From positions 160,001 through 224,000 of the forward strand of contig CBDCFN010000016.1 in assembly GCA_965216315.1 (NCBI GenBank): a DNA stretch of 64,000 bases, in the 5' to 3' direction. A model generated the notes under the pieces. The model had not been told where the DNA came from and ran no database searches. It saw only the letters and a program-made list of their open reading frames with translations. Origin of the DNA: a bacterium. Lineage in GTDB: Bacteria; UBA10199; 2-02-FULL-50-16; JAJFLM01. The translations under genes and the position numbers were made by a program. Positions 40,081 through 54,592 of this stretch are shown piece by piece (the stretch's first letter is position 1; each line of letters opens with the position of its first letter).

Positions 40081-41482
40081 CGAAATCAAGCGAGTTTATA
40101 CGGCTCAACAGGCCAATCGTTGGCAGCTCGCCCAGAGCCGTGCCAGCGAGCGCATCAAAAAACTCAAACGCATTCGCGAGGCCATTTTTGCTCGGCGTGA
40201 GGAAATACAACAGGCGATCTACGATGACTTTCAAAAGAATCCGGGGGAAACGGATCTGACGGAAATCTATCCGACGATTGCGGAGCTCAATCACACGATC
40301 AGTCATTTGCGCCGGTGGATGCGGCCCAAGCGGGTCGGGACACCTTTAACTTTGTTCGGCACGACGAGTGAAGTGCATTATGAGGCCAAAGGTTTGGTGC
40401 TGGTGCTCTCGCCCTGGAATTATCCGTTTCAACTGCTCATGGTCCCGATGATCACGGCTTTGGCTGCGGGGAATGCCGTTATTCTGAAGCCGTCGAGCAA
40501 GGTTCCGCATACCTCGGCGTTTCTGAAGCAATTTATCAGCGATCTTTTTCCCGAGAACGAAGTCGCCTTGTTTGAGGGGCCGGCATCAGTCGCGGACGCC
40601 TTGCTCGAACTGAGGTTCGATCACATCTTTTTTACCGGAAGTCCGCCGATTGGGAAAAAGATCATGGCAAAAGCAGCCACTCATTTGACGCCGGTGACGC
40701 TCGAATTGGGCGGCAAGTCGCCGGTCATTATCGACGAGACCGCTGATATTAAAAAGGCGGCCGAGCGGGTGATGTGGGGCAAGTTCATTAATGCCGGTCA
40801 AACCTGTGTCGCTCCCGATTATCTGTTAATCCACGAGAGTCATTTGGAATCGTTTGTGGAGGCGTCCCAGCAGGTCATTGCGGAACGTTACGGTGTGTCG
40901 GCGGGAGAACAGGAGTCGAGCGGTGACTACTGCCGCATGGTGAGCCAAGGGCATCTCGAAGGGCTCAAACGCGTGTTGGCTGCGGCCGTTGAAGCCGGGG
41001 CCAAGCTGGAGTTCGGGGGGCAGACCGACGACGAGGCGCGCTATCTCGCACCGACGCTGCTCTCCAACGTGAAAGATGACTCACCGATCATGCAGGAAGA
41101 AATCTTCGGGCCGATCTTGCCGATTATTACCTTCCGTTCGTTGGCTGAGGCCTTCGATATCATTCATAAACGGGAGAAACCGCTGGCCCTCTACATCTTT
41201 TCGCACAAACGGGCCCACATTGAAAAAATACTCAAAAACACGACGGCCGGGGGGACGTGCATCAACAGTCTCATCATCCATCTCGCCAATAACGATCTGC
41301 CCTTTGGTGGGGTGGGCCACAGTGGGATGGGGAATTACCATGGCTTTTATGGGTTCCGTGCCTTGTCGCACGAACGAGCCGTCTTGCGTCAAGGGGCGAT
41401 CGATACGCTGAAGATGTTTTATCCGCCTTATACGAAGCGGGTGAAGCAGATGATCCAGATGGCGATTAAGTATCTAGGATGA
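40061..41482 (+). CDS. Aldehyde dehydrogenase (class 3-like)
   Basis: PWNYP, FTGS, LELGGKSP, NAGQTCVAPDY, EEIFGP, PFGGVG. Confidence 0.96.
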   Translation: MTQATTDEIKRVYTAQQANRWQLAQSRASERIKKLKRIREAIFARREEIQQAIYDDFQKNPGETDLTEIYPTIAELNHTISHLRRWMRPKRVGTPLTLFGTTSEVHYEAKGLVLVLSPWNYPFQLLMVPMITALAAGNAVILKPSSKVPHTSAFLKQFISDLFPENEVALFEGPASVADALLELRFDHIFFTGSPPIGKKIMAKAATHLTPVTLELGGKSPVIIDETADIKKAAERVMWGKFINAGQTCVAPDYLLIHESHLESFVEASQQVIAERYGVSAGEQESSGDYCRMVSQGHLEGLKRVLAAAVEAGAKLEFGGQTDDEARYLAPTLLSNVKDDSPIMQEEIFGPILPIITFRSLAEAFDIIHKREKPLALYIFSHKRAHIEKILKNTTAGGTCINSLIIHLANNDLPFGGVGHSGMGNYHGFYGFRALSHERAVLRQGAIDTLKMFYPPYTKRVKQMIQMAIKYLG

Positions 41483-44400
41483 GTTGTTCGAAGTCGTGCG
41501 GGACTCCGGGAAATGATTCGGTCAGATAGCTGTTACCCGTGAATCGTTCCTGAGTACGATATTTCTCCAGGGCCTGAATGAGTTTAGTCGAGTTTTTGTA
41601 TCGACTAAAAATGCGATGAGAGGGAACGGGTTGTTCGGAAGCTTGCGACTGAACGGCTGCATCGATGGGTTCAGTAAAGGCGCGTAGCGAATTTATCTGA
41701 CGTAATTGGCCTTGTGACAGGATCCACCGGGCCACGAGCAGGTGAAGTTCTGGGGCCGTCAGCTCGTCACTTGGCTTCGTCATAATCACACCGATTAAAT
41801 CTTCTCGATAGGGTCCCAGCTCATTGTGGGAGCCGCTGCTTAGAATTTTCATGATGATGGGCAGAACGGGTGAGGATATTTGTCCGAGCAGCTGCAGGCG
41901 TCGTACGAGTTTGCGATAAGATGAAGCGGTGGGTAATTCGCTCTTGTCTCGCAACTGATAGCCGCGACCGTGGTTGGGAATGATGATCTTTTTTCGAAGG
42001 GTCACAGCACTAATCACATGTTGCTCGGCACGTGGCCCCGCTAGAAAGGCTGCGGCCGTATCCGCCGCTTCTTTGGCGACTAAGTACGATTCATCCGGTG
42101 TTGCAAAGACCTTGAGCTCCATCACCCACTGTTGCCACTCGCTTTGGTATTGTTTGTCCGAAGCGCGAAACCACTCCCCGATAACGCGTTCGGTCCAAGT
42201 CGGTATATTGCTGTCAGACTTGAAATCGGTTAATGGATCGCCCTCGAGTTCGCTGGAGACGGTTTGCCGGACTTCTTTGCCGAGCGTGTTGAACACGGTG
42301 GGATAAGCATAGATATAGAGAGCTCCGAGTCTTTCCGCTTGGGTCAGTTCTTGACCCCGCAGGATGTGCTGCAGACTTTTTGAGAAACGACGTATTTGCT
42401 TGTCACGACTGAACGCATGTCGCAGGCGGTTTCGAACAGTCTCCGGGGCGACCTTGGCGAATAGATTTTTCAGTAAGAGGGTCCGGAGCGTCGGATGAGC
42501 CAATAGTCTTTCCAGGTACGAGACACGTGCGTGCATGAGTTGGATGAAGTTATCGGGATCATGGGACGCGTGCCAGCGTGATTCAAAGTCATCATGAAGT
42601 TCGCCAGGTATTGAAAGCGTGTCGAGCAAGTGGGTGAGCTTGTAAGTCGTATAGAGCGCGGGATTGCGGATATTTCGTTCGTAGCGTTCTAATGATTGAA
42701 TACCGGAGAGGGGCATAACGACATGACAGTCGCTACGCTGGATGGATTGTTTGTTTCCATCAGCATCGATGACGGAGACGGTACTCCCGAGAGTTTTTTT
42801 AAAGAAGGATGGTTTGACATAACCCCAGTGTAATTGGCCGTCTTGCATGTATTCGCAGTAATAACCGCGTTGACGATATCTCTTGGCCAGGGCGAGCACG
42901 CGCAACTGACGTTCATAAACTTCATGATCGGGGGCCAGTAAGGCGAACTCCGGAAAGAGGTGGACTGCGGTATGCACGTCGGTGGGTACTTGGGCCAGAA
43001 TGGCGAGAATTTCCGGATCGGTATCCGTGCGAGCCTGACCCCGTTGGGTTACGACCATTGGGGTTTCCGGTAAAGGGTGTTCCGGTGTGAGCGGAAGCTC
43101 CGACTCAAGTTCGGCCAGGTCAGCGATGAGTTTCGGTATTTGAGTGCGTTCTCGTTCGGAGAGTTCCGTGACTTTCGCTTGGATGTCTCGATAGGAAGTA
43201 ATAGCCTGTTGAAGGCGTGGATCGAGTGACTCGGTCGAAGTCGCCTCGCTACCGAGATAAGGTGCGAGCTCGGGTCGTTTCGTGATTTGAGTATTCTGGC
43301 GTTGCAGATTTTCTCTCAAACTACTTAATTGTTTTTTTAGGCGGTGACGTAAGTCGTGCAGCTGTTGAAAAAGGGCGGCATATTCTTGAAGTGTTATCGG
43401 GGTATTTTTCTCGAGCAGTTGTATAATGGCATCCGCTGTCTTCTGTGTTGTTTCCAGGTAGGGTGTCAGGACGGAGATCGCATCTTCGACTTCATCTGCG
43501 TTGTCAGCGACCGATTCCGATTTTTGCTGGCTGGCACGCACTCGCTCCAGGGCCTCAGTATAGACGACGAGCTTGAATTCGATCTCGTGATTGAGATCGA
43601 TCAAGTGGGGACCTAATGCCGTCACAGTGTCGACGTCGGCACTATCGAGTGAATCCAGTACCGAGTAGACGGCCGGTTCAAGTTTTTCGTCGTGACTTGC
43701 GACAAGGGTCTCGGCTTTTGTCTTCATCTCGATGAGACGTTGCAGGCTCGTCATCAGTTCATCGCCGTTCAGGGATGCGGCCGCCGGGAATGTGCCGAGT
43801 TCATTGAACAGTGCATCGGCTGTTTGTCCCATTTCCTGCGCCGTTTGCATGAGTGATTGGATGGTATGCGAGGCGGTGGCCGTTGGCTTCGGGGCTGGGG
43901 GCGGAATCGAAGTGTCACGGGGTGCTTCGGGCGGTGGCGTGGATTCACGAGGTGGCGTCGTGGTTAAATATCCGGTCGCGATCATCGCGATGCGCACCAA
44001 GTGCATGACGGTATTGGCGGCGAGGGTTTCTTTGCGCGCGCGTTGGAAGGCGTCGATTTCGGTATTAATGGCCTCAGCCAGCTCGGGATGAGACGCCGTA
44101 TAGGCGTGAACATTGGCAATGATCTCGTCTTGATGGGCCATGCGGAGGCGCCTGCGGGCGTGATCGATGAAAGTTTCGACTTGATAGCATCGCTTCATCG
44201 AGAGGCGCGCACGCTTGGGGATGATGAGTGCCAGAAAGATGCGCATGTCCTGTGTCCAAGGCGCTGTGCTACCCGATGCCTCGGACGCATTGCTGACTGG
44301 CATTGAATTAGTGATGATCGCTGCGATCCGAACCAGGTGCGTCAGCGATTCTTTAGAGAGGCTGCCGTCCCGGTTGCGATCAAATTGGGCCAATTCCGCC

Positions 44401-54508: not shown

Positions 54509-54565
54509 AACCCTTCAGTCTCCTCATTTTTGCACCTTCACCCTCTTGCTTATTCTCCATGGCTC

Positions 54566-54592
54566 TCATCGGCTTATTTGGGACGACGTTGC
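54566..54592 (-). promoter_or_regulatory. Sigma28-like promoter motif copy 5
   Basis: Minus strand GCAAC-N14-GCCGATGA, 57 nt before helicase ATG. Confidence 0.7.

Follow-up and report, generated by a model that had tools for sequence, protein, structure and literature searches.

A coupled operon for a divergent XPB/ResIII-type helicase, its partner and two large paralogous proteins in a metagenome-only phylum: a tentative case for export

Effector genes of type III secretion systems (T3SSs) can be co-regulated with the secretion machine, as exemplified by the very large LifA/Efa1 of Escherichia coli and by the sigma28-controlled late genes of Chlamydia. FliA, the sigma28 factor of E. coli, has the consensus TAAAGTTT-N11-GCCGATAA. 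In archaeal XPB–Bax1, two N-terminal tri-helix bundles of Bax1 contact ThM and HD2 of XPB (PDB 6p4f and 6p66; Nucleic Acids Res 2020; PMC7293015). Here, an operon is described that lies within a 64,000-nucleotide stretch of a UBA10199 genome (GCA_965216315.1, contig CBDCFN010000016.1, positions 160,001 to 224,000; this whole stretch is termed the window). Its four genes encode a divergent helicase of superfamily 2 (SF2), a 428-aa partner and two large paralogous proteins of 679 and 2399 aa; the operon is preceded by a sigma28-like promoter, and its products might be exported.

All four open reading frames (ORFs) are on the minus strand (41466..54592). The helicase gene (54508..51989; 839 aa) ends with a TAA stop codon, and the 4-nt spacer CGCC separates it from the ATG of the 428-aa gene on its 3' side (51984..50698). 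The 679-aa gene (50701..48662) opens within an ATGA overlap (50701..50698), as does the 2399-aa gene, called the giant below (48665..41466; overlap 48665..48662). Longer alternative starts in the ORF list, corresponding to 444 and 748 aa, both overlap the preceding genes; unlike these, the coupled starts are where the ortholog alignments begin. The sigma28-like promoter, GCAACGTC-N11-GCCGATGA (54592..54567, minus strand), is located 58 nt upstream of the helicase start. Inside the operon, neither the sigma70-like sites (4 versus 7.5 expected) nor the terminator-like sites (23 versus 16.2 +/- 4.4) gave anything usable. As judged from sequence, the four genes form one coupled unit behind the sigma28-like promoter. 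All four are single-copy in the 2.96-Mb, 98%-complete genome. Searches of Pfam, PADLOC, NCBIfam and PHROG detected no methyltransferase, nuclease, integrase or secretion domain in the four proteins, and neither membrane segments nor hydrophobic stretches of the Sec type occur in any of them. The first-pass annotation of the window had likewise recorded a tightly coupled unit with a sigma28-like motif in front and had recognized no methyltransferase, nuclease, integrase or secretion gene; on these points it is borne out.

The helicase (51989..54508) contains Pfam domains ResIII (residues 126-259, 35.5 bits) and Helicase_C (residues 596-651, 33.4 bits), both above cut-off, and is matched by the DNA helicase family PHROG_16 (E 1.6e-26). 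In our reading, its layout would comprise an N-terminal helical region (about residues 1-120), RecA1 (about 126-360), RecA2 with a long insertion (about 365-660) and a C-terminal extension (about 660-839). Motif I (DTGMGKS, residues 154-160; 54029..54049), motif II (DEAD, residues 257-260; 53729..53740), motif III (SAT followed by LDRPD, residues 315-322; 53543..53566) and motif VI (QRLGRIMRP, residues 644-652; 52553..52579), all encoded on the minus strand, are invariant in the four aligned helicases. The protein thus has the Walker A, DEAD and SAT motifs, the motif VI arginine finger and the two RecA-like domains that characterize ResIII/DEAD-like SF2 enzymes. Within SATLDRPD, RPD presumably occupies the place of the XPB RED motif.

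A search of PDB sequences with the family profile places XPBII (6p4f, 5tnu) and AfXPB (2fzl, 6p66, 2fwr) at the top, with E values of about 6e-6 to 1e-5. The cut-offs of the XPB families themselves are missed (18.9 versus 610 bits for NCBIfam NF045503; 16.1 versus 27 bits for Pfam ERCC3_RAD25_C). The C-domain (residues 587-652) matches PbeA in PADLOC (E 3e-11) and, with 29 bits against a cut-off of 600, NCBIfam TIGR04095 (dnd_restrict_1; E 4.9e-7). By its motifs and matches, the protein is classified as a divergent SF2 enzyme of the XPB/ResIII type in which the ATPase motifs are intact; within this known superfamily, it forms a new branch that diverges deeply. Its family comprises 14 proteins including itself, all unnamed or 'hypothetical' and all in 'Deltaproteobacteria' metagenome-assembled genomes. 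Locus scans with the helicase alignment yielded 0 confirmed loci in metagenome contigs and 0 in viral contigs. In another genome of the phylum (G040; G040:C97:1-10773, L026), a 910-aa ResIII helicase is 25-28% identical to the window helicase, including the C-terminal extension, and directly upstream of it is an unrelated giant ORF of at least 2478 aa, without a Pfam family and open at the contig end; this pair is a second 'giant plus helicase' arrangement within the phylum.

The 428-aa partner (50698..51984) is modelled by AlphaFold2 from 7 sequences as an all-alpha protein (predicted local distance difference test score, pLDDT, 80.7). An N-terminal bundle of about six helices (residues about 8-110) is followed by a helical domain of about 300 aa, which carries the invariant motifs WHxG..RR and QW..R.W...H.G.LPA.GL. 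Foldseek searches with this model gave best E values of 0.4 against PDB and 0.3 against viral models. Like the 679-aa and 2399-aa proteins, the partner has no match in Pfam, NCBIfam, PADLOC or PHROGs. The partner family consists of 4 proteins, including that of the window, in a word-indexed search of 5.8 billion; a profile scan of 1.84 billion representatives gave 20 matches, 19 of them at E <= 1e-10. The possibility that the partner is a divergent Bax1 (DUF790) was rejected: no Pfam or NCBIfam match was obtained at E <= 0.1, the model is all-alpha, and no Bax1 appeared among PDB sequences searched by profile at E <= 10. Bax1 is thus retained as an analogy alone.

The 679-aa protein (48662..50701, minus strand) is a paralog of the N-terminus of the giant, and consists of a helical domain A (residues about 1-190), a Pro-rich linker and two copies of a domain B (about 243-445 and 461-675), the second internal copy being recognized at 34% identity across 162 aa. 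Its identity to the giant is 36.5% across 457 aa, which confirms the paralogy proposed in the first-pass annotation. Among the loci examined, the 679-aa protein is confined to this genome, and a search of the ESM Atlas with it gave no usable match. The giant (41466..48665, minus strand) is an acidic, all-alpha protein with no Pfam match and no transmembrane segment. A family search for it returned itself and one other protein; its residues 114-1329 are 33% identical to a 1807-aa protein of the related genome G012, and it is 31% identical to the protein P0024. The N-terminal 1300 residues or so are conserved among giants. By contrast with this conserved part, the C-terminal tail of about 1060 residues (1341-2399; 41469..44645) is lineage-specific and has no detectable similarity: phmmer and hidden Markov model searches against the tails of other giants gave E >= 0.03 with no significant domain, and a search of PDB gave nothing.

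AlphaFold2 modelling of the first 460 residues of the giant (6 sequences) gave an all-helical structure with pLDDT 71.4. Domain B (residues about 245-435; 47361..47933) is the best-modelled part, at pLDDT 76-94 per 10-residue block, and contains invariant YH, WPYDF, W.R.LY and WP.D motifs. A fold search with the domain B model gave no match, and for both AlphaFold2 models, of the partner and of the giant N-terminus, solved and viral structures match no better than generic four-helix bundles. The Foldseek comparison of predicted structures that the first-pass annotation had called for therefore reveals no fold match for either, and the partner and the giants have no recognizable relatives or folds. 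An N-terminal domain homologous among the helicase, the partner and the giants was also considered and rejected, with hhalign probabilities of 1-3%.

Distribution was analyzed in a phylum sample of one class and 93 species genomes, in which G000 is the genome of the window. The partner family is present in 5 of the 93 (G000, G012, G004, G026 and G062), and in all five carriers its gene is directly 3' of a helicase ortholog; by BLASTP, these orthologs are 47-51% identical to the window helicase in G012, G004 and G026, and 37% in G062. A giant gene comes directly next in three of the five (G000, G012 and G004). Because the pair is kept in 5/5 carriers and the giant in 3/5, the conserved unit is the helicase with the 428-aa partner, and the giants are accessory. 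The linkage in relatives that had been anticipated is hence observed for helicase and partner; the four genes are coupled here as first described, but the conserved core is narrower than a four-gene unit. In G026 (G026:C82, 7648..9520, L017), genes for an AAA_14/DUF4143 ATPase and a helix-turn-helix (HTH)-nucleotidyltransferase are inserted right after the partner gene, at the position of the giant in other genomes, and a 1026-aa AAA protein comes next. The ORF after the partner gene in G062 resembles DNA polymerase III alpha, as judged by eye. In G012 (L015, 1288..2898) and G004 (L016, 5..1357), an extra membrane-protein gene is coupled upstream of the helicase gene; the two products, of 536 and 450 aa, lack a Pfam family, are 26% identical to each other and have no homolog in the genome of the window.

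The site of the operon was compared with that in near relatives. A gene for an MMPL protein and then one for a class-III aminotransferase are directly adjacent in G001, of the same family, and in G003, of the same order; in the window, a 14.6-kb stretch that contains the operon and an aldehyde dehydrogenase gene lies between the two. The operon is accessory and chromosomally inserted. Its G+C content resembles the surroundings, and no tRNA, integrase or other defence gene is present beside it within the window. The aldehyde dehydrogenase gene (40061..41482, plus strand) is convergent with the giant gene and overlaps its 3' end by 17 nt; because it finds no match above about 32-34% identity in the three nearest genomes, it may belong to the inserted segment. 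On the other side, a 1157-aa orphan without a Pfam family (56881..60354, plus strand; first charge at residue 38; GILASGS motif) appears to be a further insertion next to the operon, since it is missing between its conserved neighbours in G001 and G002.

The promoter belongs to a class that recurs both at orthologous loci and across the genome. GCAAC(T/A)TT-N11-ACCGATA(A/C) is found at the same position upstream of the helicase orthologs of G026 and G062, and in G012 a -35 box precedes the extra gene, the -10 being beyond the stretch inspected. A strict form of the motif occurs 7 times in the genome and 0 times in the reversed genome, and a looser form 43 and 6 times, respectively. With the boxes and spacing kept in relatives and the class enriched genome-wide, the sigma28-like motif that had been noticed before the helicase gene stands. 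Genome-wide, the class has 58 sites, many of them in a run at C16:2.16-2.21 Mb; when 20 of the 58 were chosen by hand for a good -35 box and a nearby ORF, 15 of the 20 downstream ORFs were without a Pfam family. The genome encodes a FliA/WhiG-like sigma factor (133.5 bits, below the cut-off of 189.6), so that the two boxes, the 11-nt spacer, their maintenance at orthologous loci and a sigma factor of the appropriate type are all found. Two further occurrences may be described here. At G000:C16:2175850-2185720 (L063-L067), five neighbouring paralogs of 329-443 aa without a Pfam family have a common start segment, ...CDLYGAS...GLCRANPGTAYG..., and each is behind its own GCAAC...CCGATA promoter. 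In the window (7902..8611, plus strand), a 210-aa orphan (7979..8611) has a sigma28-like site about 50 nt upstream and its first charge at residue 31.

The four operon proteins have similar N-termini: the first 26-35 residues are Ser/Thr/Ala-rich and include no Asp, Glu, Lys or Arg. Charge first appears at residues 27, 36, 30 and 33, compared with a genome median of 4 and a 95th percentile of 24. When a class was defined by a first charge at residue >= 25 and no hydrophobic segment, 100 of 2288 ORFs scanned (about 4%) belonged to it. Within their first 24 residues, Ser is enriched (14.9% versus 7.5%), as are Thr, Ala and Leu, and a motif LA[AS][STG] is present near residue 17 in 44 of the 100, compared with 40 of the 2188 others. 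Uncharged starts are enriched behind the promoter class (9/37 versus 91/2251 elsewhere). Members include proteins of 3856, 2588, 2444 and 1991 aa, the 1157-aa orphan of the window and a 717-aa orphan inside the T3SS cluster described below. Genes of the class cluster, several giants included, for example at C15:303657-311331, C15:334057-343533, C16:710294-719230, C16:774137-784873, C16:1540099-1547215, C16:1626045-1639887 and C16:2105347-2116502 of G000. We regard the uncharged start as a candidate export leader that is specific to this lineage.

A T3SS is encoded in the same genome, about 115 kb past the end of the window (G000:C16:339000-372000; L074, L075). FHIPEP/SctV is recognized with 787.6 bits, and around its gene are two FHA/YscD-like genes, one short YscJ-like gene, FliG_C-like, SctL and SctN genes, YscO-, FliK-, FliM- and FliN-like genes, SctR, SctT, genes for small TPR proteins and several orphans. 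The gene for the FliA/WhiG-like sigma factor is located in the middle of the cluster, SctT is followed by orphans, and the cluster ends with the gene for an FHA-domain sigma54 activator. FHIPEP is present in 91 of the 93 phylum genomes. No flagellin was detected in the genome by searches whose controls were positive, and the cluster looks non-flagellar in gene content. Genome searches also detected no type VI secretion system (T6SS) sheath (VipB) and no VirB4. A search for the nucleotide transporter TLC, as a test for a chlamydia-like lifestyle, gave no match, and its controls were also silent.

When the promoter class is considered together with the shared leader-like starts and with the location of the sigma factor gene in the secretion cluster, T3SS export is the best explanation, and the operon is tentatively viewed as a co-regulated, exported, helicase-centred effector module, a reading in which our confidence stays somewhat below even; a cytoplasmic defence or repair complex is almost as probable. 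The sigma28-like promoter would drive the operon and is probably read by the FliA-like sigma factor of the T3SS cluster. The four products, devoid of a Sec signal or membrane segment, bear the uncharged Ser/Thr/Ala-rich N-termini of the roughly 100 mostly orphan proteins and might be exported jointly, most plausibly via the T3SS found across the phylum, to a host or prey cell as the target. The partner would hold or direct the helicase as it acts on the nucleic acid of that cell, and the giants would serve as scaffolds or targeting arms. We infer the helicase–partner binding, the target and the substrate; the anatomy of the pair, by analogy with XPB–Bax1, supports the idea that the helicase and its private partner work together. 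In its fullest form, this proposal has the T3SS deliver the XPB-like helicase, its partner and the giants jointly to host or prey, whose DNA or RNA they would unwind or remodel; they would belong to about 100 substrates that carry a new uncharged N-terminal leader, with a motif in some of them, and are under the control of the secretion-cluster sigma factor. That form is unlikely, if by no means negligible.

Several observations weigh against export. Secretion is deduced solely from composition and co-regulation, and the class counts derive from crude gene calls (longest ORF, no start model). The -35 box of the window is weak, agreeing with the GCAACTTT of the genome at 5/8 positions. LA[AS][STG] is absent from all four operon proteins; the N-termini of the orthologs are low in charge but less strictly so, with the first charge at residues 4-43 among the helicases and 2-39 among the partners; and the uncharged start of the partner is modelled inside a folded helix, H8-25, not as a free leader. 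The operon contains no chaperone-like small gene. Because the sole strong secretin match (169.6 bits) is about 600 kb from the T3SS cluster, an injectisome is unproven. Also, we know of no helicase that is a T3SS cargo. The suggestion of exported effectors made in the first-pass annotation therefore gains circumstantial support from the T3SS cluster with its FliA-like sigma factor, the promoter class and the uncharged N-termini, and is still held at a strength that falls a little short of an even chance.

The patchy occurrence of the partner family (5/93 genomes) and the insertion of the operon between genes that are adjacent in relatives would fit a defence island equally well. In a cytoplasmic anti-phage or anti-plasmid system, the motor would scan or remodel invading DNA, the partner and giants would be sensor or effector scaffolds, and the tail, which has no counterpart in other giants, would reflect an arms race. 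The nearness of the helicase C-domain to the models of PbeA and of the Dnd-type restriction helicase, the AAA_14/DUF4143 and HTH-nucleotidyltransferase genes inserted at the G026 locus, and the other helicase adjoining an unrelated giant in G040 are consistent with such a system. However, the four proteins contain no nuclease, toxin, methylase or other effector domain, the three non-helicase proteins match no PADLOC model, no relative was found in viral contigs, and no integrase, tRNA or other defence gene is beside the operon in the window. The G+C content is like that of the surroundings, and the locus has the same flanks in two genera (G012 and G004). Defence would further leave the shared uncharged N-termini and the stage-type promoter unexplained, and is considered possible, if rather unlikely. 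The first-pass annotation had also raised a helicase-centred defence or nucleoid complex, of which the defence form agrees with a patchily distributed, inserted locus whose giant has a variable tail, but does not account for the N-termini and the promoter.

As an internal DNA repair, transcription or nucleoid-remodelling complex for one life-cycle stage, the pair would be XPB–Bax1-like, with the N-terminal bundles of the partner docking on the thumb-like insertion and second RecA domain of the helicase and the giants acting as chromosome scaffolds. The nearest solved relatives of the helicase are the XPB proteins of the XPB–Bax1 work, in which Bax1 grips XPB ThM and HD2 via two N-terminal tri-helix bundles (PMC7293015); the partner model likewise opens with a bundle of about six helices, the RecA2 insertion of the helicase is long, and a sigma28-like promoter suits stage-specific expression. 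But the partner, modelled all-alpha, lacks a Bax1/DUF790 signal and nuclease motifs, the XPB equivalog scores are far under their cut-offs (18.9 versus 610 and 16.1 versus 27 bits), and occurrence in 5/93 genomes argues against a core chromosomal function, making this role clearly unlikely. Alternatively, the uncharged N-termini might be a sorting signal that sends the products together by a route other than a T3SS, be it vesicles, an internal compartment or an export system not yet known. The regularity of LA[AS][STG] near residue 17 in 44/100 members, greater than that of known T3S signals as generally described, and the distance of about 600 kb between the only strong secretin match and the T3SS cluster are in line with this idea. 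On the other hand, the searches made detected the T3SS as the only specialized export machine, with neither a T6SS sheath nor VirB4, and the four operon proteins lack LA[AS][STG], so that we regard such a route as the least probable of those weighed here and very unlikely.

If export is true, this would be the first case of a secretion system delivering a helicase machine, and a large unexplored effector repertoire would exist in a metagenome-only phylum, with an N-terminal tag for finding the rest. If the cytoplasmic reading is true, the locus would represent a new helicase-plus-partner module and a candidate new defence or DNA-handling mechanism. Either way, it provides three protein families, of 400-2400 residues, without a relative of known function, and the helicase–partner pair is a clear target for structural work.

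No described system accounts for the operon. In PADLOC-DB 2.0.0, the generic helicase C-domain alone is matched (PbeA) and the other three proteins have no match below E 0.01, in agreement with the first-pass annotation, which matched the operon to no system; a full-text literature search, which covered main texts, turned up no paper on the cluster, on type III secretion in this lineage, or describing a leader of this kind. With the Pbe/Dnd phosphorothioate-linked restriction helicases, the operon has in common that they are the best defence-library matches of its helicase C-domain (PbeA, TIGR04095), but only about 65 residues of generic RecA2 core match, and the other Pbe/Dnd components are absent.

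Comparison with FliA (sigma28) and Bdellovibrio attack-phase promoters shows a similar eight-base -35 ending in TTT, the 11-nt spacer and a (G/A)CCGATA -10, the box lengths and spacing being equal to those of the E. coli sigma28 consensus. Unlike in FliA promoters, the -35 box is GCAACTTT and not TAAAGTTT, the genome has no flagellin, and the genes driven are mostly orphans; unlike in the FliA system, the sigma factor is below the FliA cut-off and is encoded inside a T3SS cluster. Like T3SS effector genes, those of the operon are lineage-specific and family-less, their products have no Sec signal and have Ser/Thr-rich, acid-poor N-termini, and they occupy an accessory, island-like site behind a promoter common to other orphans, with the sigma factor in the T3SS cluster. 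They differ in that the operon has no chaperone gene and that export is predicted here from sequence; as far as we are aware, no helicase with intact ATPase motifs has been described among effectors. Unlike T3S signals as generally described, the N-terminal class often shares a short motif. Something categorically new, namely a secreted helicase machine in a large, tagged effector repertoire, is a doubtful prospect.

The closest counterpart is XPB–Bax1, in which an XPB-type SF2 helicase is similarly encoded beside a dedicated partner of about 400-470 aa. The best PDB sequence matches of the helicase are XPBII and AfXPB, and the partner opens with helical bundles, as does the XPB-binding domain of Bax1. 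The partner is unlike Bax1 in being all-alpha, without a Cas2-like or nuclease domain and without a Bax1 sequence signal; the helicase is unlike XPB in having RPD at the presumed site of RED, in its far longer insertion and in additional regions at both termini; and XPB–Bax1 has no giant proteins. Because the partner is not the Bax1 nuclease, membership of the XPB–Bax1 system is rejected, and the pair instead resembles a known kind of assembly, a helicase with its dedicated partner, built here with an unrelated partner.

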